Source: an uncultured Kiloniellales bacterium (GTDB taxonomy: Bacteria > Actinomycetota > Acidimicrobiia > Spongiisociales > UBA5794). From it: 64,000 bases of DNA. Below are positions 29,804 to 43,048 of this stretch, piece after piece. A program made the position numbers and the translations under genes. The stretch is from NCBI GenBank assembly GCA_964195155.1, contig CAXMOP010000115.1, positions 4,986 to 68,985 on the forward strand. The letters are read 5' to 3'. How positions within the stretch are numbered: position 1 is the stretch's first letter; each line of letters starts with the position of its first letter. A model generated the notes under the pieces. The model was not told the origin of the DNA and did not search any database. It worked only from the letters and a program-made list of their open reading frames with translations.

Positions 29804-30481
29804 TCACAGGCCGCCGCCGGTGAGGGCCCGGCCGACGGTGACGATGCCGAAGCTCACCAGCACCGCCAGGTAGGACAGCCCGGTCGCGGCCATCACCCCC
29901 GAGTACCGCGGCTCGCGGATGGAGAACCAGACACCGGCAAGCAAGAGGGCGCCGAGAACCACCAGAGCGACCCACACCCAGGTCAGGACCGAGCCGGTGA
30001 GGGCAAGGGCGCCGGAGAGCACGACCGCAACCGTCTCCCCGCCCAGGGCCACCGCGGCGGACTCATCGAGGTCATACAACGGCCGACGGGGCAGGGTCGG
30101 GTCCACCAGGAACCAATGCCCGAGGAGCATTTCGGATGTCACACCGCCGAGCAGCATCGTGCCCGTCGCCAGCAACACGATCGCCAGGAGCCCGGGCTCG
30201 TATCCAGCCAGCAACAGCAGTGCGGCGGCCAGGATGAACAACGTGCGCGAGGCAAGAGCCTGTTTGGCGGCTACCGCCCCACCGACGGCAAGTACCGCGG
30301 CAACCCAAGCGAGCGTACCGACCCCGGCGAGAGCAGCAAGGGCCGCAAGCGCTGCGGTAACCGAACCCGCCAGCCACACATAGCCGGGACCCACCACCCG
30401 CCATTGGACGACGAGTGCGGTACCGGCGGCGACCCCGGCTCCCCACATGATGAAGAGCAGCTCCGGACCGAGCTCGATCAC
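29804..30481 (-). CDS. Hypothetical polytopic membrane protein translationally coupled to tkt
   Basis: GTG at 30481 overlaps the tkt stop (GTGA). About 7 hydrophobic helices. Confidence 0.5.
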
Positions 30482-32427
30482 TCGCCGAGCCAGGCGGCGA
30501 TGCGTTGCGCCACCGCCTCGGGCGTGAACCCCCATTCGGCTGCGATCACCGTCCACGGAGCCGAGGCGCCGAAGTGGTCGATCCCGATGCGCAACCCGTC
30601 CGTTCCGGCGAATTCTGCCCAGCCGAAGGTCGCCGCCGCCTCCAGGGTGGCGACCGGCATCGTCTCAGGGAGTACCTCAGCGCGGTATTCATCCTCCTGT
30701 TCGGCAAACGCCTCCCAGCACGGCATCGACACGACCCTGATCGAAATGCCATCGGCGGCGAGCAACTCGGTCGCCCGCTCGGCAAGCTGCACCTCTGACC
30801 CGGTGGCGACGAGGGTGGCGTCGGTGCCGTCGCGCCGGATGTACGCACCCCGCCGTACCAGCTCGCGATCGGGTTCCACCGCCGGGACGGGGAGATTCTG
30901 CCTGGTCAGCGCCATCGCGGTGGGGCCGTCGGTTCGGCCGATCGCCATCTCCCAACCCACTGCGACCTCGGTGGGATCGGCGGGTCTGATCACCCACAGA
31001 TTTGGCATTGCCCGCAGCGAGGCGAGGTGCTCGATCGGCTGGTGGGTCGGGCCGTCCTCGCCGAGGAACACTGAGTCGTGGGTCCAGATCCAGATCGAGG
31101 GCGCCCCCATGAGGGCGGACAGCCGCACCGAGGCCCGCATGTAGTCCGAGAAGATGAGAAAGGTTCCGCCGTAGCAGCGGAGCCCGCCGTGGAGGTTGAT
31201 CCCGTTGACCACCGCCCCCATGGCGTGCTCACGGACCCCGAACTTGAGGTTTCTTCCCTCGGGGTGGGCAGCCGAGAAGTCTCCGGAGCCATCGATCTGG
31301 GTGTTGTTCGACGGCGTCAGGTCGGCCGACCCGCCGACGAGGCCGGGCATCGCCGCAGCAAGTTGCTGGATCACCGCGCCGGAGGCGCTCCTGGTTGCTA
31401 CCGATCCCTCGAACGACGGCGTGGCGAGGGTCACCGGGCCCGGATCGAAATACGAATCCGATCGCTGCTCGAGGTCAGGATCGGCTTCGAAGGCCTCGGT
31501 TCGCCGCTGTTCCCACGCCCGTCTCGCCGCCCTCCCCCGGTCCATGCCGACACGGAACCATTCGTAGACCTCGTCGGGGACCACGAATGGCGGGTACTCC
31601 CAGTCATACTCCTCGCGGACGAGCTTGACCTCGTCGACGCCGAGCGGGTTGCCGTGCGCCGAGGCGCTGTCCTGCTTGTTCGGTGAGCCGTAGCCGATGT
31701 GGGTCTTGGCGACCACCAACGACGGACGCTCCTCCCCGTTTGCTTCGGCGATCGCCTGCCGGATCGCCGGGCGATCGTGGCCGTCGACCCCGACCGTGTG
31801 CCACCCATAGGCGGCGAATCGGCCGGCGACGTCCTCGCTGAAGGCCAGCTCGGTCGAACCATCGATCGTGATCGAATTGTCGTCGTACAGGTAGGTGAGC
31901 TTGGAGAGGCTCAGGTGCCCGGCCAGCGAGGCCGCCTCCGAGGCGACGCCCTCCATCAGATCGCCGTCAGAGACAAACGCATAGGTGCGGTGATCGACGA
32001 GATCTGCACCAAACTGGGCACGAAGGTGGCTCTCGGCGATGGCCATGCCAACCGCGGTGGCGAAGCCCTGACCGAGCGGACCGGTGGTGGTCTCGATCCC
32101 GATTCCGGGTTCGTATTCGGGATGCCCGGCGGTGCGAGACCCAAACTGGCGAAAGTCCTCGAGCTCGTCCATGGCCAGCCCGAAGCCGCTGAGATGCAGC
32201 AGCGAGTAGAGCAACATCGATGAATGGCCGTTCGAGAGCACGAAGCGGTCGCGGTCGGGCCAGGTTGGGTCGTCCGGGTCGAGCAGGGTGAACTCGGACC
32301 ACAACACCGCGGCGAGGTCCGCCATCCCCATCGGCGCGCCGGGGTGCCCCGATTCGGCACGCTGCACCGCATCCACCGACATCATGCGCATTGCGTCGAC
32401 GGAGAGCTGTTCGATGTCTTTGGCCAA
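30478..32427 (-). CDS. tkt: Transketolase
   Basis: Proposed TTG start at 32427, 5 nt after GAGGAGGAGG, gives [37 protein letters not shown], a typical Tkt N-terminus. The in-frame ATG at 32490 is the alternative start. The ThDP motif GDGDLMEG is present. Confidence 0.9.
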
Positions 32428-32542
32428 GTCAACCTCCTCCTCGGCGACGCGCAAGGGTAGGCGGCGGGCGCGGTCGGGCCGCCCGGGCATCGTGCGCGTA
32501 TGGTTTGTGGAACATGAGCCGCGAGCAATCCGAGGTGTTGTG

Positions 32543-33208
32543 ATGACGGCAAAGGGTGGCAACGGTCGGCTTCCCCTCTCCTACCTGACCCTGCGACGGA
32601 CTTTGGGAATCCTGGGCATGGCGCTTCCGGTGATTTTGGTGATCGGCGGCCTCATCTTCACCTCCAACAGCGAGATCGAGAACACCATCAGCGACTATTA
32701 CGACACCATCATGGTGGGCGTCTTTGTCGGCGTGCTGTTTGCCATTGCCACGTTCATGTTCTCCTACCTCGGCTACGAGATGCCGAACAGGGGACGATTC
32801 GAGGCTACCGACAACATCGCCGGCAACCTGGCGGCCCTCTTCGCCGTCCTGGTGGCGCTGTTCCCGACCACCCATTCCGTGCAGTGGGTGCGAGGCGTGC
32901 ACCTGGCATCGGCGTTGCTGTTCTTCATGACCCTGGCGTACTTCTCGATCCACTTGTTCACCAAGACCACGCCGGGCGAGACCGCGCAGGGGAGAAAGGC
33001 CGATCGGAACCGGATCTACCGAGTCTGCGGCTGGGCCATCATCCTGTTCATCGCCCTGATCGCCGTCTACTTCCTGTTCTTCCAGGACACGGGCATCGCC
33101 GATCTCAAGCCCGTGCTCGTGCTCGAGTCACTTGCGCTGTGGGCATTTGGCATCTCCTGGCTGGTCAAGGGCGATACGTTGCTCCAGGACTCACCGCCCG
33201 CCCGGTGA
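32543..33208 (+). CDS. Hypothetical membrane protein (5-6 TM helices); first gene of the low-GC island
   Basis: ATG at 32543 with a GAGGTG Shine-Dalgarno sequence. GC content is clearly lower than in the flanking DNA. Confidence 0.55.
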
Positions 33209-33393
33209 GCGCTTCCGGTCGAGCCTCGAGCCCGAGGCGATCGCCGAACGGCGGATGGCGAGTTGAGGCCCGAGGGCAGCGCGGTATTGCCGGTTCTCGG
33301 ACGCCGCGACGTGGGTTGGTGAGCCGGCGCGTGCGTCGTTATGTGCGGTCTGCGCAGACGGTGGAAACCGACGATCTTGCCAGGGGTCAGGGA

Positions 33394-33415
33394 GCGCATA
33401 TTGCCGGATATGCGC
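33394..33415. promoter_or_regulatory. Island palindromic motif copy a: GCGCATATTGCCGGATATGCGC
   Basis: An 8-bp perfect inverted repeat around a GCCGG core. It lies upstream of the MBL hydrolase gene. A related copy is at 33454-33473. Confidence 0.6.
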
Positions 33416-33540
33416 TAGCTGATCTTGACGAACCGCTACGGGGAGCGCGAACAGAATGCCGGTTATGTGCGGGTGTCTGGGGGCCTTCTCCGGGCCCCGT
33501 CAGAACGAACTAGGGTGCGTCGACCCGAAGGAGGCCTTCT

Positions 33541-34677
33541 TTGTCGAACTTTGTCCTAGCGCATCTGGGTGGTACTACAGCGCTTACTACTGAGCCGGTC
33601 GTCGGGTCATCAGATATTGACCCGAGCGTGGCATTTCTGCCCGGGACCGAGGAGCTCGCCGAAGGTGAGATCCGAGTGTCAATCTTGGGTTCCGGGTTGC
33701 CGTGGGTGACCAAGTCGCAGGCATCCGGATCGGTTCTCATGGAGGTGGGCAATCCCGAAAAGGATGTGCTCGTCTTCGATATGGGAACAGGATCGCTGGC
33801 GAACTTCAGCGGTCTTCAAGTTCCTGTCACAAGCCTGAAGAACGTGTTCTTGAGCCATCTACATGCAGACCACATCTCCGACTACGTCACATTCATGGGC
33901 AGCTACGTCAAGGCTGGACGTCTAGACCCTGTCGAGGTGTGGGGTGGAGCGTCCGACGATCCCACATTGGGCCTTGCGACTTTCGTGGACCACATTCAGC
34001 GAGCCCTCGCGTGGGACCAGGCCTCAATCGAGGGATATGTACCTACTACCGGAGGACATGCCACCGCTCACGAAGTTCCATACGACAGGACTGAGGTGAT
34101 CTACGAGCGCAATGGCGTAACCATCACTTCGTTCCCAGTCATCCACGTCCTCAACGGTGCGGTGGGTTTCCGCGTCGATTACGGCGGGCAGTCCGTCGTG
34201 TTCTCTGGCGACACCCTCCCAACGATGACGCTTGTTGAGGCCTCTCAGAATTGTGATCTCCTGATCCACGAGGCAGCCCTTCCCGCCGAGCTGTTTGCCG
34301 AGTTGTACAGCTTCCCGATCGAGCAGGCGCGGATGGTCATCAATGAAGGCCACACCCCCGCCAACGCTGCTGGAATGGTGTTCGACATGGTGACGCCGCG
34401 AATGGCAGCCATGTGGCACACGGCCGTTGTAGACAAGTACGTCGATCCTTTCTTTGAGTCTCTCCGCACGACGTACTCCGGGCCGGCAACGCTGTGCCAG
34501 GACCTAACCGTGTTCAACGTCACGGCCGACGCCGTCACCGCCCGCCAAGCGACCATCGATTGGACCCAACAGGCGGTCGTAGGCGAATCCGATACCGCCC
34601 GGTCCTACGCAGAGCGGCGTCCCAGCCCGACATGGTTCGCCGACGCATATATCGACTGGCAGTCAAAACTCGGCTAA
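33541..34677 (+). CDS. MBL-fold metallo-hydrolase
   Basis: The HLHADHISD motif (HxHxDH) is present. TTG start at 33541, 7 nt after AAGGAGG. Confidence 0.75.
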   Translation: MSNFVLAHLGGTTALTTEPVVGSSDIDPSVAFLPGTEELAEGEIRVSILGSGLPWVTKSQASGSVLMEVGNPEKDVLVFDMGTGSLANFSGLQVPVTSLKNVFLSHLHADHISDYVTFMGSYVKAGRLDPVEVWGGASDDPTLGLATFVDHIQRALAWDQASIEGYVPTTGGHATAHEVPYDRTEVIYERNGVTITSFPVIHVLNGAVGFRVDYGGQSVVFSGDTLPTMTLVEASQNCDLLIHEAALPAELFAELYSFPIEQARMVINEGHTPANAAGMVFDMVTPRMAAMWHTAVVDKYVDPFFESLRTTYSGPATLCQDLTVFNVTADAVTARQATIDWTQQAVVGESDTARSYAERRPSPTWFADAYIDWQSKLG

Positions 34678-34680
34678 TCA

Positions 34681-34752
34681 GCCGCACATAACGGCACATA
34701 GTGGGCGGTCGCCTCCAGCTAGCGCATATCGGCACATATGCGCATATGTGTC
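34681..34752. promoter_or_regulatory. Island palindromic motif copies c1 and c2 (CCGCACATAACGGCACATAGTGGGCGG and GCGCATATCGGCACATATGCGCATATGTG)
   Basis: Directly visible in the convergent spacer after the MBL gene. Confidence 0.6.
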
Positions 34753-34855
34753 GATTGGGCGGGGGATTGGGTGCGTGTCTATGAAGCGCGAAGCGGCGCT
34801 GTGGACGTTTGCCGAGTCCGACGATTGAGTCGGGTCTTCTGTGGGTGAGTGGCGG

Positions 34856-35170
34856 TCAGCCCACCTCGACGTATTCCGAAATTGTCTTCATGAACTCGTC
34901 GGGGTCATCTGGGGTGACCGTGGCCCGTAGACGGCCGCCAGCATCTATCGCAATCCCCGTGGTCTTGTGTCGGCGTGCAGTGTCCCAGTTATACCAGTTC
35001 GACCATCCGCCCGGACCGAGTCCTATGACCCTCCACCGCCCGCCGAATCCCATCTCAAACACCTCGACTGATCGAATCTCGCCGTACGGAACCCGCTTCT
35101 CGCCCAATAGCCCGTAGCGAGCGATCGTGATACCCGTGTCATCGGCTCGCACCGTGTTGTCCTCATACAT
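34856..35170 (-). CDS. Bacterial PH-domain (bPH_2-like) small protein
   Basis: 104 aa. ATG at 35170. Confidence 0.5.
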   Translation of the reverse strand: MYEDNTVRADDTGITIARYGLLGEKRVPYGEIRSVEVFEMGFGGRWRVIGLGPGGWSNWYNWDTARRHKTTGIAIDAGGRLRATVTPDDPDEFMKTISEYVEVG

Positions 35171-35305
35171 CAGCCGCAGAGTATTGACACACTCGTCGTA
35201 TCAACACCGCCGCTGTCGCCGGTCGAATGAGCCACATCTCAATCGGGCGCGGCGGACTCACGAGGCCCAGACGCCCTCCGTCAGACAGTTCGGATTGAGA
35301 AGGCC

Positions 35306-35375
35306 CCCCCATAACCGGCAATATGGGCGGTTTCGCCCGGCGGGTCGGGTAGCGCATATGTGCCGATATGGGCGG
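35306..35375. promoter_or_regulatory. Island palindromic motif copies d1 (CCCCCATAACCGGCAATATGGGCGG) and d2 (GCGCATATGTGCCGATATGGGCGG)
   Basis: Directly visible. d2 ends at the ridA stop codon. Confidence 0.6.
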
Positions 35376-35834
35376 CTATTGGATCTCGACGATCGCCTCG
35401 ATCTCTACCGGTATGTTCATTGGAAGCGATCCAAGTCCGACCGCTGAACGTGCATGCCGTCCAGCCTCGCCGAATACGTCCGCCAGTAGATCAGAGCACC
35501 CGTTGATGACAGCCGGGTGATCAGTGAAATCGGTCGTGCAATTCACCATCCCCAGCACCTTGACTACCCTTACGACCTCGTCAAGCGAACCGAGATTCTT
35601 TCGAAGCGTCGCAAGCAAGCCAAGGCATGTGACTCGTGCCGCCTCGCTAGCTTCATCGGTATCGAGGTCCTCTCCAACCTTGCCGGTCATCCACGACCCG
35701 TCGGCGCGCATCGGGCCATGACCGGACGTGTAGGCGAGGTTCCCCGTTCGCACAAACGTGACATAGGACGCAATCGGATCGGGAGGTGAGGGCAACACCA
35801 AACCGAGTTCCTTGAGTCGAGCCTCCGCCGACAT
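35376..35834 (-). CDS. RidA/YjgF-family reactive-intermediate deaminase
   Basis: 152 aa with typical RidA fold motifs. ATG at 35834. Confidence 0.8.
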   Translation of the reverse strand: MSAEARLKELGLVLPSPPDPIASYVTFVRTGNLAYTSGHGPMRADGSWMTGKVGEDLDTDEASEAARVTCLGLLATLRKNLGSLDEVVRVVKVLGMVNCTTDFTDHPAVINGCSDLLADVFGEAGRHARSAVGLGSLPMNIPVEIEAIVEIQ

Positions 35835-35920
35835 CAGACGCTCCTGCCTCTACGAATCCCCCGAGGGTACAGGCCCACGTCTCCCGTCAACATTCTCGGC
35901 CGCACCAAGCCACTCAGAGA

Positions 35921-35944
35921 GCGCATATGTGCCGATATGGGCGG
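35921..35944. promoter_or_regulatory. Island palindromic motif copy e: GCGCATATGTGCCGATATGGGCGG
   Basis: Identical to d2, and located upstream of ridA. Confidence 0.6.
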
Positions 35945-35954
35945 GTGTTTGGTG

Positions 35955-37124
35955 TCAGCCGCAGGTGGCCTCGGAGCTGCTACTGACGGTATCGATCCAG
36001 TGGACGGATTGTCCGGTGGCGATGTCGCCTGTGGAGATCGTCCCTGATGCGGTGTATGTCGAGGGGTCGACGTTGAAGGTGTGGCGGTAGTCCGTTTCGT
36101 TGCCTGTTGTAGTGATGATCCCGGAGAACGTGTCGGTGGGGGCGCGGGATGGGATTTGGCGGTCATCGAGTCGGATGCTGGCGTGTAGGGGGCCGCCCCA
36201 GTCTCCCCACGTCAGGATCACTTGACACTCGCCCGAGCTTGGATCCCTGGACAGTTGGAGTGTTAGTTCAGCTTCGAGGGACGGCTTGTCGTTCAAACTG
36301 GCCTGTACGTCGATGAAGTTGCCTGCCAGCGGTACCAGTCGCGGGTTCCCGTAGAGGAAATCGACGTCGGCAACACCTGGGGTATTGGAGAACCGGAGGA
36401 ACATGGTGCGAGCGAATGGTCTGAAGATGCCCACGGTGTCAGGACCAGGCAGGTCGTCCTTCTGTGCCCAGTCACCGGCGATGATCCTGTCACCAGGATC
36501 TCCGTAGTAGAAGGTGCTATCGGCGATCCCCTGGGTATTCGAGTTCCGGAGGAACACCTGTCCGGTTGATTCGCGGTGGAGACCGACGGTGTCGATGTCG
36601 TCGTCGTCGAAGTCGCCTACGAACGGCTTGTCGAGAGGATTCCCGTAGTAGAACGAGTAGCTGGCCGCGCCCAGACCCTGTTCCCCACTGCCGAGACTGT
36701 CGAATATGAAGACTTGACCCTGCGACGGCCGGTACAGCGACACCGTATCGCACCCGTCCCCGTCGAAATCTCCTGTGATCGGAACGTCACCACGGCTGCC
36801 GAGGTAGAACCTGACATCGCCCTCTCCGATCGCGATGTGATTCCGCAGGTACACGTATCCATCCGTCGGTCGGAACATGCCTGGCGTATCCCAGCCATCG
36901 CAGTCCCAATCACCGACGATCGGGATATCTCCGGGTACGCCGAAGAAGAATCTATAGCTCGAAATCGTCCCGGATTGCTCGTGCTGCTGACGCAGGTACC
37001 ACAGGCCCGATGTGGTATCAACCACACCGACGGTGTCCTCGGGCGTCTCGGCCAAAACCGGAGCCGGTAAGGCGAGCCAACCGAGCACGACAATCAACAC
37101 AAGAGCCGTCACTGTCACCCTCAC
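35955..37124 (-). CDS. Secreted FG-GAP / beta-propeller repeat protein
   Basis: The signal peptide is VRVTVTALVLIVVLGWLALPAPVLA. At least five repeats of F(Y)YG.PGD.P..GD[WF]D.DG.DT.G.FRP follow. The start is GTG at 37124, or TTG at 37160. Confidence 0.7.
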   Translation of the reverse strand: MRVTVTALVLIVVLGWLALPAPVLAETPEDTVGVVDTTSGLWYLRQQHEQSGTISSYRFFFGVPGDIPIVGDWDCDGWDTPGMFRPTDGYVYLRNHIAIGEGDVRFYLGSRGDVPITGDFDGDGCDTVSLYRPSQGQVFIFDSLGSGEQGLGAASYSFYYGNPLDKPFVGDFDDDDIDTVGLHRESTGQVFLRNSNTQGIADSTFYYGDPGDRIIAGDWAQKDDLPGPDTVGIFRPFARTMFLRFSNTPGVADVDFLYGNPRLVPLAGNFIDVQASLNDKPSLEAELTLQLSRDPSSGECQVILTWGDWGGPLHASIRLDDRQIPSRAPTDTFSGIITTTGNETDYRHTFNVDPSTYTASGTISTGDIATGQSVHWIDTVSSSSEATCG

Positions 37125-37388
37125 CGACACCCCCGGACCCTCCACAATTTCGATCCTCAACGATCACGGATCATACGACTCAGACTATGAGAGGAAACGG
37201 ACCATGGTTCCCCATGACGTCCGGCTCAGCTAGCTCCTAGACGCCGAAGGAAGAGCGATCGCCGAATGGAATGGTGCTGCGGACGACCAGACGCTCGACT
37301 CTCTGCTCGAACAGTCCCTCGGGTGATCAACCCGGCCGAACGCCACCAAACCAATGACCTTCGGCGGCACGTCAAACCTCCGACCACA

Positions 37389-37414
37389 CCCGCCCATAAC
37401 CGGCAATATGCGCC
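37389..37414. promoter_or_regulatory. Island palindromic motif copy f: CCGCCCATAACCGGCAATATGCGCC (reverse complement of copy a type)
   Basis: Directly visible in the divergent spacer between the FG-GAP gene and the HNH gene. Confidence 0.6.
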
Positions 37415-37585
37415 CCCTACGTCCCGGTCTCCAGAGGCAGGACCGGGTACAGCACGAACACCGATCACCCGGTCTGAGCGACATCGCCGACATCCACGAG
37501 TGCTCTGGAACGGCACTTCGGAGTGCGGTCAGTTTCCTTGCATTTCTTCTGGAATCTGTCACCCGCACCGTGTAGGATCGAACAT

Positions 37586-38821
37586 ATGTTCGATAGAGAA
37601 TTCACCTCTGTCCCCGATGGGCTCGACGACATGGAACCAAGCGTGGAGTTGGCAACCGCGCTCAATGACATCGACGTCGATCTGGTGTCGCCGCATGACC
37701 GGATCATCGTCATCCGCGCCTACGCCCGAATGGAGTCCTACTACCAGGCCCGCAAGTATCGCGCCATGGCCTCGGTCGCCGACGCCTTGGAAGAAGACGA
37801 CATGCAGCATGGCCTCGACACCGCTGCCGCCGAGATCCAAGCCGCCCTGTGTCTGACCCGCCGCGCTACCGAAACCGAACTCGGGTTCGCGTTGGATCTG
37901 TGGCATCGCCTTCCGCAGGTCTGGTCTGCGTTGGCGGCGGGGATGATCGACTACCGGAGGGCCCGGGTCATCTCCCTCGGGACGGTCCACCTCGACACCG
38001 GTGCCGCATGGGAAGTCGTCGAACGCATCTTGGAGGACGCCGGCCGGCTCACCTCCGGCGAGCTGCGGAGCCGTCTGCACCGGATGGCGATCGAAGCCGA
38101 CCCGGAGGACGCGCGGCTCCGCTACGAGGACGCCGTCAAGGAGCGGCGAGTGGTTCTCGAACCCGCCGATGACGGGACCGCCAACCTGCTCGGCCTCCAG
38201 CTGGCTCCCCATCGCGCCGCAGCTGCTTCCCGTCATGTGAACCATCTCGCCCGATCGCTGAGGACGAGGGACGAGACCCGCACCATGGATCAACTCCGCG
38301 CCGACGTCCTCATCGACCTGCTCTTGGGCAAGGCACACAGCGGCAAGAAGGCGGGAGCGGTGAATTTGCGGGTCGATCTGGAAACCCTCTCAGGCCTCGC
38401 CGAAGACGCAGGTGAGTTGAACGGCTACGGCCCGGTGATCGCCGACATCGCCCGCCAGATCGCCGCTGAAGCCGAAGATGCCGAATGGCGCTACGCCATC
38501 ACCGACCCGCACACCGGCCAATTGATCACCGACGGGACCACCCGCCGTCGCCCCACCGCCGCGTTGCGCCGCACCGTGGAGGCAAGAGATCAGACCTGTG
38601 TGTTCCCCGGCTGTCGCGTGCCCGCGGTCGACTGCGACTTCGACCACAGCACCCGATGGGCCGACGGCGGCGAAACCACAGAAGACAACGGCGCCCCCCT
38701 CTGTCGCCACAACCACATCACCAAGGACCAACTCGGTTGGAGCTACCGGCGGCTCCGTGACGGCCGCTACCGATGGCGCAGCCGACTCGGCCACACCTAT
38801 TACAGCGCCAGATCCCCATAG
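37586..38821 (+). CDS. DUF222 (REP13E12-family) HNH endonuclease
   Basis: The N-terminal DUF222 region is followed by a C-terminal HNH motif, CVFPGCRVPAVDCDFDHSTRWADGGETTEDNGAPLCRHNH. Confidence 0.8.
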   Translation: MFDREFTSVPDGLDDMEPSVELATALNDIDVDLVSPHDRIIVIRAYARMESYYQARKYRAMASVADALEEDDMQHGLDTAAAEIQAALCLTRRATETELGFALDLWHRLPQVWSALAAGMIDYRRARVISLGTVHLDTGAAWEVVERILEDAGRLTSGELRSRLHRMAIEADPEDARLRYEDAVKERRVVLEPADDGTANLLGLQLAPHRAAAASRHVNHLARSLRTRDETRTMDQLRADVLIDLLLGKAHSGKKAGAVNLRVDLETLSGLAEDAGELNGYGPVIADIARQIAAEAEDAEWRYAITDPHTGQLITDGTTRRRPTAALRRTVEARDQTCVFPGCRVPAVDCDFDHSTRWADGGETTEDNGAPLCRHNHITKDQLGWSYRRLRDGRYRWRSRLGHTYYSARSP

Positions 38822-38838: not shown

Positions 38839-39912
38839 CTACCCGACCGTGTACAGCTCGCGGTCCGACCGGTTCAACCGCTCCACGCCGTCGTCGGTGA
38901 CCGTCACGATGTCTTCGATCCGCATCCCCCAGTGACCGGGTTGGTAGATGCCCGGCTCGATGGAAAAAGCCATGCCGGAGACCAGCTCAGTGGTGTCTCC
39001 TTTGACGAGATAGGGTCGCTCGTGGGTGTCGAGGCCGATACCGTGCCCGGTGCGGTGGATGAAGAGCTCGCCGTATCCGCCGTCCTCGATCACGGTCCGA
39101 GCTGCGACATCAATGGACCCGGCGGTTACCCCCGGCTTCACCGCATCCACGGCCGATCGTTGCGCGGCGCCGAGCACCTCGTACGCCTCGGCGAACCCCC
39201 CCGGGGGGTCTCCCACCACGAACATGCGAGTGGTGTCGGATCCGTATCCATCGAGCCAGCCGCCGAAGTCAACGACAACGGCGTCGCCACGCTCGATCAT
39301 CCGGCCGGTCGGCTCGTGGTGGGGCGATGCGCCGTTTGGCCCGGAGGCGACGATGGCAAAGCCGCTCCTCTGATGGCCCGAGTCGAGCGTCATCTCGTCG
39401 ATCAGCCGCGACAGCTCGCGTTCGCTGCGCCCTGAGAACCTGGTCGCCCCCAGCCGGGCAACCACCGCGTCGGTGGCTGCACCCGCGGCGCGGAGAGACG
39501 CGATCTCGCCCTCGTCCTTCACCATGCGCAGCTCGGACATCAGCGGTTCGGCCGGTTCGAACCGCGCACCCGGCAGCCGGGTCTGCATGCCGATCAAGAA
39601 GGTTGCCCAGGTCTGGTTGCCAACGGCGACGGTGGAAGCGTTGCCGATCAGGCCAGCGAGGATCGCGATTGGATCCTCGGTCTCCGACCAGGCCCGCTTC
39701 TCCACACCGGACTCGACGCGCACCTCCTCGAGCACCGGTACCAACAGGACTGGATCACCCTCGGCGGGCAGCACCAGTGCGGTGATGCGCTCGTTCTCCA
39801 TTGCCTGGTACCCGATCAGATACGGCAGATCGGATCCAACGGTGACGACGAGGGCATCGACGCCGCGGCGAGCCATCTCCAGTCGCGCCGAAGCGATCCG
39901 GCGCTCGTTCAC
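38839..39912 (-). CDS. M24-family Xaa-Pro aminopeptidase/dipeptidase
   Basis: A pita-bread fold with HRTGHGIGLDTHE metal ligands. GTG start at 39912. Confidence 0.8.
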   Translation of the reverse strand: MNERRIASARLEMARRGVDALVVTVGSDLPYLIGYQAMENERITALVLPAEGDPVLLVPVLEEVRVESGVEKRAWSETEDPIAILAGLIGNASTVAVGNQTWATFLIGMQTRLPGARFEPAEPLMSELRMVKDEGEIASLRAAGAATDAVVARLGATRFSGRSERELSRLIDEMTLDSGHQRSGFAIVASGPNGASPHHEPTGRMIERGDAVVVDFGGWLDGYGSDTTRMFVVGDPPGGFAEAYEVLGAAQRSAVDAVKPGVTAGSIDVAARTVIEDGGYGELFIHRTGHGIGLDTHERPYLVKGDTTELVSGMAFSIEPGIYQPGHWGMRIEDIVTVTDDGVERLNRSDRELYTVG

Positions 39913-41555
39913 GTGGCCTGGGCGAGCGAGTCGCGGGCGTGATAGGAGGAACGGACCAGCGGACCGGACTCAACATGGCTGATCCCGAGAGACTCGCCGT
40001 GGCTGCGATATCTGGCGAACTCATCGGGATGGACGTAGCGATGGATCGGGCGGTGCCGCGGCGTTGGCCGGAGGTACTGGCCGATCGTGACCAGATCGAC
40101 GCCGACCGCCCGGAGGTCGGCGAGCGTCCCGAGCACCTCTTCCTCGGTCTCCCCCATCCCGACGATCAGGCCCGACTTCACCGTGCCCGCCGGGTTGAGC
40201 CACTTGGCTCTCGCCAGCAGGGTCAACGACCGTGCGTAGTTGGCGGCGGTGCGGATCTCCCGTTGCAGACGCAGCACGGTCTCGGTGTTGTGATTGAGGA
40301 CCTCGGGCTTCTCGCCGACCATGGACTCGAGAGCGTCCCGATCGCCCTTGAAGTCGGGGATCAGCACCTCGACGTCGCAGCCGGGAACGAGGTCGCGGAT
40401 CCTTCGGACCGTCTCAGCAAAGATCCCGGCGCCACCGTCGGGAAGGTCGTCGCGGTTGACCGAGGTCAATACCGCGTGACGCAATCCCATCTGCTGTATG
40501 GCCTCGGCGGCCCGCAGCGGCTCATCGACGTCGACCTCGCCGGGCTTGCCCGTGTTGACGTCGCAGAAGGAACAGGCGCGGGTGCAGGTATCACCGAGCA
40601 GCATCAAGGTCGCAGTGCCGGCCTCCCAGCACTCATAGATGTTGGGGCAACCCGCTTCCTCGCACACGGTGTTGAGCTCGAGTCCCCGCATCAGCTGCTT
40701 CAGCTCCCCGTATCCGTCAGAGCCAAGGTTTGCCCTGACCTTCATCCATTCGGGACGAGCCGGCTCGCCCGGGAGGAGGCCACCGATCAGGATCGGGGTC
40801 TCCCCACGGCCGGCCGCGGAGAACGCACCGGATGCGACCATCGCATCGACGTCGTACCGGCCGGATCGCTCGCTTGGCCGGAAGGCGCCGAGCTGTATCT
40901 CCGGCTCCACGGATCCAAAGACTGCCGCTGCGTGCGGAACCAGGGCATCGATGACGGACTCCATCGGGAGATGCTCACCGATCAGCTGGGCGATCGAGGT
41001 CACCGGCCGGTCGGCGATCCCGCATGGGACGATGTTGGAGAAGTATGCAAGGTCCGGGTCCACGTTGAGGGCAAAGCCGTGGGTTGAAACTCCCCGGGCA
41101 ACCCGAACCCCGATGGCGGCCACCTTGCCCCGCCCGGTCCACACGCCGGTCTGGCCGGCCTCGGCCCAGGCTTCGATGCCGAGATCGGCGAGGGCGGCGA
41201 TGAGCATCGCCTCGAGGCGGCGAACGTGGCCGACCATGTCCCAGCCATTTGCCAGCTTCGGGATAGCAACGATCGGGTAGCCGACGAGCTGGCCGGGGCC
41301 GTGGTACGTGATGTCGCCGCCGCGATCGACGTGGTGCAACCTGGCACCAATCGCGTCGAGGTCGGCCTCGGCGATGGTGAGATTGGATCCGTCACCGTTT
41401 CGGCCGACCGTGTAGGTATGCGGGTGCTCCAGCAGCAGCAGGTAGTCGTCCGCGGACCGACCCTCGGTTCGTCCCTCCCAGAACGCACGCTGCAGGTCCC
41501 ATGCCTCGTCGTACTCGACGCGGCCGAGCCACCGCACACGGAGGCGGTGGCTCAT
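39909..41555 (-). CDS. In-frame fusion of octanoyltransferase LipB (N-terminal, about 238 aa) and lipoyl synthase LipA (C-terminal, about 310 aa)
   Basis: ATG at 41555 forms an ATGA overlap with the E2 gene stop. The LipB catalytic region includes TYHGPGQLVGYPI and the catalytic C of ...VPCGI. LipA then follows with RPEWMKV, the [4Fe-4S] triad CEEAGCPNIYEC and the radical-SAM triad CTRACSFC. There is no stop codon between the two halves. Confidence 0.8.
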   Translation of the reverse strand: MSHRLRVRWLGRVEYDEAWDLQRAFWEGRTEGRSADDYLLLLEHPHTYTVGRNGDGSNLTIAEADLDAIGARLHHVDRGGDITYHGPGQLVGYPIVAIPKLANGWDMVGHVRRLEAMLIAALADLGIEAWAEAGQTGVWTGRGKVAAIGVRVARGVSTHGFALNVDPDLAYFSNIVPCGIADRPVTSIAQLIGEHLPMESVIDALVPHAAAVFGSVEPEIQLGAFRPSERSGRYDVDAMVASGAFSAAGRGETPILIGGLLPGEPARPEWMKVRANLGSDGYGELKQLMRGLELNTVCEEAGCPNIYECWEAGTATLMLLGDTCTRACSFCDVNTGKPGEVDVDEPLRAAEAIQQMGLRHAVLTSVNRDDLPDGGAGIFAETVRRIRDLVPGCDVEVLIPDFKGDRDALESMVGEKPEVLNHNTETVLRLQREIRTAANYARSLTLLARAKWLNPAGTVKSGLIVGMGETEEEVLGTLADLRAVGVDLVTIGQYLRPTPRHRPIHRYVHPDEFARYRSHGESLGISHVESGPLVRSSYHARDSLAQAT

Positions 41556-43048
41556 CGCAGTTCCTGTTCCCAATCCCAGGATTCGAGGTTCCGCTTGATT
41601 TGGGCGAGGAACAGCACCGCCGTCGAGCCGTCGAATGCCCGGTGGTCCCAGCTGAGCCCGAGATACCCGATGTGACGAATGGCAACGGTGTCGGTGCCGT
41701 CGGGAAGGGTCACCACAACCGGGCGCTTCACCACGGTGTCGGTGGACAGGATGGCGACGTTTGGCTGGTTGATGATCGGTGCGCTCATGAACGAGCCGAA
41801 CGGCCCCGGGTTGGTGATCGTGAACGTGCTGGTGGAAAGATCCTCCGGATGGAGCTTCCCGGCGCGGGCGCGTTCCGCAACACCGCGGATGTCCCGGGCA
41901 AGGCCGGTGAGGCTGCCCGAGTCGGCCTCAGGGAGGGTCAGGACGATGAGCCCTCCCTGACTGAGGTCGACGGCGATGCCGAGGTCAACGCCGCTGTGGA
42001 ACGTCTGTGTGCCCGCTTCGAGGTCGAACGAGCTGTTCACCGCCGGGTAGGCGCCGAGGGCATCGATCGTCGCCCGCGAGATGAACGGGAGGTAGGTGAG
42101 CGAGAAACCCTCGGTTTCCTTGAAACGCGGCCCGTGCCCTTGACGGGCTCGGGCGACCGACTCGAAATCCACCTCGACCGAGGTCCACACGTGAGCCGAA
42201 GTTTGCTTCGAGGCGATCATGTGCTCTGCCGTGACGCGACGGATCTTCGTCATCGGTGTGACCCCGCCGGCCTCGTCGGCCGTAGGCGCCGCCGCGTCGG
42301 CCGCGGGCACGACCAGTTCGGCCGCTGGTGGCTCTGCTCGCTCCTGGGGCTCGACGGCGACCGCAACCACCGGCTCCTCGACAATCACTTTGGTCGTTGC
42401 GGCCACTGCGCCCGTGGCAACGAATGCCTCAACATCCTTTCGGGTGATCCGGCCACCGGTGCCGGTGCCGACAACCTGATCGAGGTCCACGCCGTTGTCG
42501 GCGGCGAGCTTCCGCACCACCGGCGAGAGCTGCGCCCGTCGTGAGTCGTCGCCTGCAACAGCGGTCGTCGCGGCGGCTGCGGCGACGGGGACGGCCGGTT
42601 GGACGGGAGCCGACTCGGCCGGCGTCGATGCCACCGCGTCGGAGGACTCGGGCGGCGGTCGCTCGGTACCCGTTGGCCCCTGCTGCGACCACACCGCGCC
42701 CGCGCCGGCCGGTGCCTGGGCGGCGACCGGCTGTGGCGAAGGGGCCTCTTCGGGGGCTGCTTCCGCTGCTGGCTCCGTCACCGGTTCTTCCGCCGCCCCC
42801 GGCTCCTCGTCGGCGCCGGTGATGACGACGATCTCGGTACCGACCTCGACCGTTTCGCCCTCCTGGACGAGGATCTGCTCGATGACGCCGGCTACCGGCG
42901 ACGGCATCTCGGTGTCGACCTTGTCGGTGGAGATCTCGACGAGAACCTCATCGATGGCGATCTCGTCGCCGACCTGCTTCGCCCAGGAAAGGATGGTGCC
43001 CTCGGTGACCGTTTCACCGAGTTGGGGCATCGTGACCGTCACTGCCAT
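41552..43048 (-). CDS. Dihydrolipoyllysine-residue acyltransferase (E2 of a 2-oxo-acid dehydrogenase complex; DlaT/SucB-like)
   Basis: ATG at 43048, 9 nt after GGAGGAG. A single lipoyl domain (EISTDKVDTE) is followed by an Ala/Pro linker, a PSBD and a catalytic domain with the DHRAFDG motif. Confidence 0.85.
   Translation of the reverse strand: MAVTVTMPQLGETVTEGTILSWAKQVGDEIAIDEVLVEISTDKVDTEMPSPVAGVIEQILVQEGETVEVGTEIVVITGADEEPGAAEEPVTEPAAEAAPEEAPSPQPVAAQAPAGAGAVWSQQGPTGTERPPPESSDAVASTPAESAPVQPAVPVAAAAATTAVAGDDSRRAQLSPVVRKLAADNGVDLDQVVGTGTGGRITRKDVEAFVATGAVAATTKVIVEEPVVAVAVEPQERAEPPAAELVVPAADAAAPTADEAGGVTPMTKIRRVTAEHMIASKQTSAHVWTSVEVDFESVARARQGHGPRFKETEGFSLTYLPFISRATIDALGAYPAVNSSFDLEAGTQTFHSGVDLGIAVDLSQGGLIVLTLPEADSGSLTGLARDIRGVAERARAGKLHPEDLSTSTFTITNPGPFGSFMSAPIINQPNVAILSTDTVVKRPVVVTLPDGTDTVAIRHIGYLGLSWDHRAFDGSTAVLFLAQIKRNLESWDWEQELR

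Follow-up and report, generated by a model that had tools for sequence, protein, structure and literature searches.

Introduction

The VCBS supercluster of β-propellers unites the integrin FG-GAP, VCBS and tachylectin propellers (Pereira and Lupas, 2021, PMC8023676; also PMC9218822). Its hallmark is a DxDxDG motif within the loop that leads from strand A to strand B of a blade, and its members typically recognise carbohydrates (PMC8023676, PMC9218822). The supercluster includes the 'actinolectins', uncharacterised secreted propellers found only in actinobacteria, as well as tachylectin-like propellers of bacteria that are joined to catalytic domains (PMC8023676, PMC9218822). The propeller of UmbA4 from the Streptomyces umbrella toxins, whose blades carry conserved Ca-type loops, binds a cell-wall glycopolymer, the teichuronic acid of target cells; UmbA lectins are hypervariable, falling into 41 families with 20–30% identity (PMC13274773). 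Here we describe a propeller protein encoded on the minus strand at positions 35955–37124 of a 64,000-nucleotide stretch of Acidimicrobiia DNA (contig CAXMOP010000115.1; the whole stretch is referred to as the window), together with the family of modules to which its propeller belongs.

The gene had been noticed in an earlier reading of the same DNA (the original prediction) as coding for a secreted repeat protein with integrin-type blades, situated in a genomic island. Soils, fresh water and oceans harbour abundant Acidimicrobiia, which have barely been cultured. To our knowledge, the biology of their cell envelope is essentially unknown.

Results

A portable propeller module of Acidimicrobiia

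The propeller is a lineage-wide, highly conserved and portable module carried by a large share of Acidimicrobiia secreted proteins. A phmmer search with the module against 1.84 billion representatives of 50%-identity clusters returned 23,685 matches at E ≤ 1e-3, of which 14,751 had E ≤ 1e-10 and 2,327 had E ≤ 1e-30. In these proteins the module is located either right after the signal peptide or at the very C-terminal end. More than 524 loci were confirmed in a genome scan, and the figures for taxonomy, position and identity given here were derived from the 80 best of them, which come from 48 assemblies. Nearly all of the 80 are in metagenome-assembled genomes (MAGs) labelled Acidimicrobiia or other Actinomycetota, and a few are in MAGs labelled otherwise; some single MAGs contain at least 5–6 paralogues. 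The module is N-terminal, following the signal peptide, in 42/80 loci and C-terminal in 27/80. Its sequence is ∼65% identical both among the paralogues of one genome and across genomes. The group formed by the window protein and its orthologues is divergent, being 50–56% identical to the main family.

The module is joined to a wide range of partner domains. These include Amidase_2, Peptidase_M23, VanW, LytR_cpsA_psr, SNase, Excalibur, β-lactamase, metallophosphatase, GSDH, Trypsin, Peptidase_S8, PD40/DPPIV_N propellers, PKD, cadherin-like, Calx-beta, β-helix and LRR domains. It also occurs as a stand-alone protein with a Pro-rich tail. The original prediction overlooked this promiscuity, the fusion of the propeller elsewhere to many enzymes, and the existence of a portable module in the wider family is the main new point of this study. 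The module is unlikely to be a sorting signal, as it occurs at either terminus and is a folded propeller of 240 residues.

Several members have unusual architectures. The giant proteins P0121 (3432 residues), P0122 (1796 residues), P0193 (3436 residues), P0124 and P0125 contain up to 9–10 module-matching stretches of 35–42% identity and are possibly multi-propeller adhesins. A Trypsin domain is present in 5/70 module proteins; if it is N-terminal and the propeller C-terminal, the architecture would be that of UmbA subunits, a hint that Umb-like particles employing this propeller may exist in some Acidimicrobiia. A frequent C-terminal partner (in P0017, P0019, P0027, P0029, P0043 and others) is labelled PF27111 in a precomputed table; in P0017 the partner is a duplicated Cys-containing unit of ∼75 residues (FGxGTWxVGxDIxPGTYR...GCYWERxSGFGG...DxDCGTW).

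Predicted five-bladed fold and repeat structure

AlphaFold2 modelling of the window protein from a 121-sequence alignment gave a model with a predicted local distance difference test (pLDDT) score of 92.2 and a predicted template modelling score of 0.84. The model contains 20 strands in residues 30–268, arranged as 3 + 4 × 4 + 1 into five four-stranded blades. The ring is closed by a 1 + 3 Velcro, in which the strand of residues 263–268 completes blade 1, and an eight-strand sandwich follows the propeller. The protein is thus predicted to be a five-bladed β-propeller plus an FN3/Ig-like sandwich; the model agrees with the propeller fold proposed originally and departs from the 6 or 7 blades that a structure prediction had been expected to confirm.

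The mature protein contains exactly five tandem repeats of ∼47 residues, where five or more had been foreseen, with the consensus DTVGxxRxSxGxxYLRxxxxxGxADxxFxFGNPGDxPxxGDFxxDGx. All ten pairs of units scored at z = 6–19 against shuffled sequences, and the observed score was reached by 0/500 shuffles. Unit 1 (residues 30–78; 36891–37037, minus strand, as are all protein features below) contributes strands B–D to blade 1 and strand A to blade 2, ends with a DxDxDG loop, and has DSSP strands at residues 30–36, 41–47, 54–60 and 67–71 of the model. Units 2 (residues 79–125; 36750–36890) and 3 (residues 126–177; 36594–36749) were delimited by repeat alignment, the shuffle test and the model strands, and the C–D loop of unit 3 has a 5-residue insertion. 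Unit 4 (residues 178–228; 36441–36593), delimited by repeat alignment and the shuffle test, carries a degenerate Asp loop (GDWAQKDDLPGP). Unit 5 (residues 229–272; 36309–36440) has no Asp loop, and its last strand is the one that closes blade 1.

The GD[WF]DxDG-type motif, originally ascribed to the repeats in general, is found in full in three units (residues 72–77, 119–124 and 171–176), is degenerate in the fourth and is lost in the fifth. The first loop, D72-W-D-C-D-G77 (36894–36911), is a predicted cation site in the A–B loop and includes a conserved C75. The second, D119-F-D-G-D-G124 (36753–36770), is followed by a conserved C125. The third, D171-F-D-D-D-D176 (36597–36614), conforms to DxDxD[GD], the family consensus having Gly at position 176. 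Each loop lies between the predicted strands A and B of a blade (67–71/80–85, 114–118/127–132 and 166–170/179–184, respectively). The same pattern of three kept loops, a degenerate fourth and a lost fifth extends across 121 family members, among which D72 is conserved in 121/121 and D74, D76 and G77 in 111/121 each. The DxDxDG loops probably bind cations. The near-invariant C75 (36900–36902) and C125 (36750–36752) are located in or beside the first two loops (DWDCDG and DGDGC) and probably form an inter-blade disulfide. Together with an invariant Cys pair that brackets the FN3-like domain, they are consistent with an extracytoplasmic location.

Relationship to known propellers

No close solved structure was retrieved by structure search. 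The best structural neighbours of the model are the lectin tachylectin-2 and the lectin propeller of UmbA4. Foldseek also matched integrin alpha headpieces and the BBSome and KICSTOR propellers at E values of 1e-6 to 1e-4 with TM-scores of only 0.26–0.33; for the integrin headpieces the E value was ∼1e-5 (to 1e-4) and the TM-scores were only 0.26–0.31.

At the sequence level the window protein matched 0 Pfam families even at E ≤ 10, FG-GAP (PF01839) included, and no NCBIfam family. Neither the protein nor a whole-family or single-blade profile retrieved an integrin, an UmbA or a tachylectin from PDB sequences; the sole matches were chance low-complexity or short ones. When ten relatives were scanned at E ≤ 10, FG-GAP was the most recurrent family (6/10, all sub-threshold, best E 0.036) and FG-GAP_3 occurred once. 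The family consensus matched FG-GAP_3 at E 0.043 in four in-register stretches (profile positions 1–56 of 61). An artificial protein of five idealised repeats reached 1.6e-17 with FG-GAP_3 and 8.7e-6 with FG-GAP (25.9 bits against a threshold of 22.1), scores that carry less weight because the variable positions had been filled by the analyst. The blades, judged by their sequence, remotely resemble FG-GAP/VCBS blades; the natural sequences fall outside those Pfam families. What survives of the integrin FG-GAP-like, Ca-binding blades named in the original prediction is the placement of DxDxDG loops in the A–B layout of integrin and VCBS blades (PMC8023676); the expected Pfam match does not.

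Integrin alpha and the FG-GAP (PF01839) and FG-GAP_3/VCBS (PF13517) families share with the module a repeat logic, FG ... GD-x-[DN]-G-D-G-x-D ... G-x-x-x-P, in which the Asp loop links strand A with strand B. In the integrin head, as in the window protein, an Ig-like domain follows the propeller (propeller plus thigh). Integrin alpha, however, has seven blades rather than five and a β-subunit partner, which has no equivalent here, and the TM-scores are ∼0.3. Tachylectin-2 (PDB 1TL2), a five-bladed lectin that binds N-acetylglucosamine (GlcNAc) and N-acetylgalactosamine between its blades, is likewise built from five blades of ∼47-residue repeats, but it is only 6% identical to the window propeller and gives no sequence-level match. 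Tachylectin-like propellers lack the DxDxDG loop (PMC8023676), of which the window propeller has three, whereas the GW pocket motif of tachylectin-2 is absent here. The G/W motif of loop C–D and the GW motif of loop D–A' of the supercluster are retained in part: Gly is conserved in both loops (xxxGxAD and FGNPGD), while the repeat consensus has no Trp.

With its VCBS-type Asp loops, a five-blade fold resembling that of tachylectin and a weak similarity to integrin, the window propeller fits the VCBS supercluster and probably belongs to its VCBS/tachylectin lineage of lectin propellers. The closest description is that of the actinolectins and bacterial tachylectin-like propellers, which share with the module the DxDxDG motif in the A–B loop, occurrence in Actinomycetota, a signal peptide, and a propeller that is alone or combined with catalytic domains (PMC8023676). 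Like the actinolectins, the window propeller is placed between VCBS/integrin-type motifs and the tachylectin-2 fold. Restriction to actinobacteria and possession of a signal peptide, both actinolectin traits, are also seen in the module (nearly all of the 80 best loci; N-termini resembling signal peptides). Actinolectins are single-domain proteins or have a TIM barrel before the propeller (PMC8023676), whereas the module has dozens of partners at either terminus; the likeness is one of description only. No papers came up when the literature was searched for the motif strings themselves (GDWDGDG and similar).

The UmbA4 propeller (PDB 9OEE; PMC13274773) differs from that of the window protein in having six blades rather than five. 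UmbA subunits carry a trypsin-like domain at the N-terminus and are accompanied by umbB and umbC in the locus, whereas the window protein lacks a trypsin domain and its neighbours are genes for RidA, a metallo-β-lactamase-fold (MBL-fold) protein and a DUF222/HNH protein. The absence of a trypsin domain and of umb neighbours rules out the window protein as an UmbA. Moreover, the module is strongly conserved and UmbA lectins are hypervariable.

Gene, export signal and C-terminal domain

The propeller coding sequence encodes 389 residues, from a GTG start codon at 37124 to a stop codon at 35955–35957. The assignment comes from the open reading frame (ORF) list, the sequence and seven full-length orthologues (P0001–P0007). 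GTG 37145 and TTG 37160 are other candidate starts; the sequence GGAGGG is found 12 nt upstream of GTG 37124. The gene is real, since the orthologues are 57–95% identical to its product over the full length, and the remaining ORFs that overlap it are usual high-GC artefacts. An exact-sequence look-up of the window protein among public assemblies gave no match.

Residues 1–25 (37050–37124) form a putative Sec-type signal peptide, MRVTVTALVLIVVLGWLALPAPVLA|ETPED, recognised by eye from the sequence, from the AlphaFold2 helix (residues 2–17) and from the homologue N-termini. In MRVTVTALVLIVVLGWLALPAPVLA a basic n-region is followed by a hydrophobic core, and V-L-A precedes the predicted cleavage site; the homologue N-termini are likewise hydrophobic and then contain A-x-A. 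These features suggest Sec export and agree with the secretion proposed originally. Without a lipobox Cys or an LPXTG motif, the protein is unlikely to be a lipoprotein or a sortase substrate.

A short linker (residues 273–286; 36267–36308) stands where paralogous module proteins have a Pro-rich GSLPGGxxPPP sequence. It leads to the FN3/Ig-like β-sandwich (residues 287–389; 35958–36266), which contains an invariant Cys pair with the second Cys in a terminal ...CG. Modelled alone, this domain had a pLDDT of 88.6. It is FN3-like and non-catalytic, and a local jackhmmer search found it only in the orthologue group of the window protein. A word-indexed homologue search with the domain alone returned nothing despite the existing orthologues, a result counted as a limit of the search method.

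Gene neighbourhood and palindromic motif

The propeller gene lies in a stretch of lower GC content (0.60–0.62 at 32–38 kb, against 0.65–0.68), which is bounded by housekeeping genes: transketolase (30478–32562) on one side, and an M24 peptidase, LipB–LipA and an E2 acyltransferase on the other. The stretch contains genes for a membrane protein without a Pfam match (32288–33208) and an MBL-fold protein (33541–34677), an orphan ORF of 104 residues (34856–35170), RidA, the propeller gene and DUF222/HNH. Positions 32000–38000 look like a variable accessory insertion within a housekeeping region. Directly downstream of the propeller gene is a RidA-family gene (35376–35834, minus strand; matches to YjgF_endoribonc and Ribonuc_L-PSP), and divergently upstream is a DUF222 ORF (37523–38821, plus strand) whose HNH-like C-terminus was seen by eye. 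A scan for promoters and terminators around the propeller gene found no sites.

The neighbours named in the original prediction, RidA and an HNH endonuclease, are thus present, but their adjacency is not conserved in the orthologues. The orthologue neighbours vary: SBP_bac_3 and flavodoxin genes in locus L001, a DUF1214 gene in L083 and, in L084, a further paralogue of the module. The adjacency is incidental. None of the inspected orthologue loci shares a conserved neighbour or a common operon partner, so that the proposed check for co-occurring genes came out negative. The statement that the protein has no obvious enzymatic partner holds: it contains no catalytic domain, and none of the genes beside it is conserved. 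In L084 the two module genes are tandem paralogues (1–1071 and 1222–2379); the one directly before orthologue P0007 carries the same module (49% identity in blades 3–5) with a different C-terminal domain.

The gene is flanked by a palindromic motif, as had been noted, with one copy (GCGCATATGTGCCGATATGGGC) at 35921–35942, starting 13 nt past the propeller stop codon, and another at 37392–37413 (minus), ∼270 nt upstream of GTG 37124 in the region shared with the divergent DUF222/HNH gene. The palindrome is ∼25 nt long, GCGCATAT[TG][GT]GCCG[GA][AT]ATG[CG]GC, with a short form GCGCATAT-N6-ATATGSGC, and GGG or TAGCTG often comes directly after it. Six further copies occur at 33394–33415, 33452–33473 (minus), 34680–34700 (minus), 34722–34743, 35307–35328 (minus) and 35352–35373; all eight fall within 33.39–37.41 kb, occupy every intergenic gap of the low-GC stretch and have no counterpart elsewhere in the window. 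Copies are present beside orthologous propeller genes of two other genomes too (L001 at 6630 and 14372, L083 at 772 and 1227), and the motif is absent from the remaining Acidimicrobiia loci compared (841 kb in the whole scan). Neither a T-run nor conserved flanks accompany it, and Rfam gave no match in 33–38 kb, the palindrome included. The motif could be a lineage-specific hairpin like repetitive extragenic palindromic elements, or an operator.

Outside the low-GC stretch, a single ORF of 554 residues (39909–41573, minus strand) contains a LipB-type octanoyl/lipoyl transferase (LplA-B_cat) and a lipoyl synthase (LIAS_N and Radical_SAM). It would be a LipB–LipA fusion, unless an internal start splits it into two overlapping genes.

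Discussion

A candidate lectin for an envelope glycopolymer

The function we favour for the propeller, with a modest preference over the other possibilities taken together, is that of a lectin-like module for an envelope glycopolymer that retains or targets its passenger at the cell surface. The window protein would be exported via Sec and its signal peptide removed, leaving the propeller and a disulfide-containing FN3/Ig-like sandwich. The propeller, with three cation-type DxDxDG loops on one face, would bind as a lectin-like domain to a conserved envelope glycopolymer, which may be peptidoglycan-associated or of teichuronic/teichoic type, and this binding would retain or target the passenger domain at the cell surface. 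The passenger in this case is the non-catalytic FN3-like domain, and the whole may therefore be a surface-displayed binding or structural protein and no enzyme.

Several observations point towards this function. The nearest folds and the supercluster have lectin character, and the binding of teichuronic acid by an actinobacterial propeller is a direct precedent (PMC13274773). The spectrum of partners mirrors that of known wall-binding modules, and the module is strongly conserved, unlike the UmbA lectins; its ∼65% identity among paralogues and between genomes argues for one conserved ligand. A partner spectrum of this kind is typical of the cell-wall-binding modules SLH, LysM, CWB2 and SH3b. 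The likeness to these and other Gram-positive wall-binding modules (choline-binding modules and GW repeats) is functional only, the folds being unrelated. It includes many paralogues per genome, placement at the N- or C-terminus, the presence of signal peptides and, as fusion partners, amidases, M23 peptidases, nucleases, proteases and adhesin-type domains. For the named Gram-positive modules wall binding is the point of comparison; for the propeller it is inferred.

Other points weigh against an envelope lectin. The sugar-pocket motifs GW and W, present in tachylectin-2 and PVL, are missing from the repeat consensus (compare PMC8023676). The partner spectrum fits the targeting of foreign cells or environmental polymers equally well. 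The ∼65% conservation was drawn from the 80 best matches only and is subject to selection bias, and the ligand of the divergent orthologue group of the window protein may differ from that of the main family. All the named family members are annotated in databases as 'hypothetical protein'.

The main rival to an envelope ligand is a non-self one. The propeller might serve as a lectin or carbohydrate-binding module for environmental polysaccharides or particles, or for the wall glycopolymers of competitors, so that fused hydrolases are delivered to prey or substrate. The targeting domain of lysostaphin offers a parallel for binding the cell walls of competitors. Both closest structural neighbours recognise foreign surfaces, UmbA4 through target-cell teichuronic acid and tachylectin-2 through non-self GlcNAc. 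The partners include lytic enzymes (Amidase_2 and M23), nucleases and proteases, the giant proteins with up to 9–10 module stretches look like multivalent adhesins, and the Trypsin-bearing members would add an UmbA-like case, only if the Trypsin domain is N-terminal and the module C-terminal. The module, however, keeps its identity across paralogues and genomes while UmbA lectins diversify. Its partners also comprise enzymes whose substrate is the wall of the producer itself (LytR_cpsA_psr, VanW and a class A β-lactamase fold) as well as numerous non-lytic domains, and no UmbB- or UmbC-like genes adjoin the window gene. We regard a non-self ligand as rather unlikely, though less so than the other alternatives.

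A role as a protein–protein interaction or assembly scaffold, for example for S-layer or surface-lattice docking or for oligomerisation, and with no carbohydrate bound, appears improbable. β-Propellers, VCBS-type ones included, also mediate protein–protein contacts (PMC9218822); the scaffold propellers of the BBSome and KICSTOR are among the Foldseek matches, and strong conservation and many paralogues would suit a common protein docking partner. Yet no conserved partner gene stands beside module genes in the inspected loci, the best structural neighbours are lectins, and Ca-type loops are typical of the lectin members of the supercluster.

Slightly less credible still is the protein envisaged by the original prediction, an integrin-alpha-type FG-GAP propeller of 6–7 blades that acts alone in adhesion or ligand binding and is tied to an island with RidA, HNH and the palindrome. 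The DxDxDG loops, a repeat layout of FG...GD-x-D-G-D-G...G-x-x-R-P, the Foldseek matches to headpieces of propeller plus Ig-like thigh, the weak FG-GAP matches in six of ten relatives and the idealised consensus scoring above the FG-GAP and FG-GAP_3 thresholds all speak for it, but it is contradicted by blade number, Pfam membership and gene context. An enzymatic role for the five-bladed propeller, on the model of GH43/GH32 glycosidases, glutaminyl cyclase or Ca-dependent apyrase, is very improbable. The residues that are invariant (G, D, W, F and R) are structural ones recurring in every blade, with no single asymmetric active site; the propeller matches no enzyme family in Pfam, NCBIfam or PDB sequences; and its attachment to dozens of catalytic domains unrelated to one another is what a binding module would show.

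Implications for the Acidimicrobiia cell surface

The envelope-lectin function can be extended to the class as a whole. In this tentative extension, to which we give less credence than to the lectin function itself, the 240-residue propeller would be the principal, so far unrecognised non-covalent surface anchor of Acidimicrobiia, binding a class-specific wall glycopolymer in a Ca-dependent manner, and the window protein would be one of its cargoes.

The window gene itself is of modest consequence: it lies in a variable, low-GC part of the chromosome and would encode a surface protein with no enzymatic function. It is the module family, more than this gene, that is of interest, through its size, its conservation, its lack of annotation and the idea of a class-wide anchor. 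Tens of thousands of Acidimicrobiia secreted proteins share one conserved, unannotated module that matches neither Pfam (2025 copy) nor NCBIfam. If the module is a lectin for a wall glycopolymer, its presence would provide a simple sequence rule to predict the surface proteome of Acidimicrobiia, and fusions of the module to green fluorescent protein would give a handle to label or capture Acidimicrobiia cells. It would also be a new case of the VCBS/tachylectin lineage serving as an anchoring device. If it is the principal anchor, the module would be the Acidimicrobiia counterpart of SLH, CWB2 or LysM and would determine which proteins make up the surface proteome in an abundant class that is mostly uncultured.

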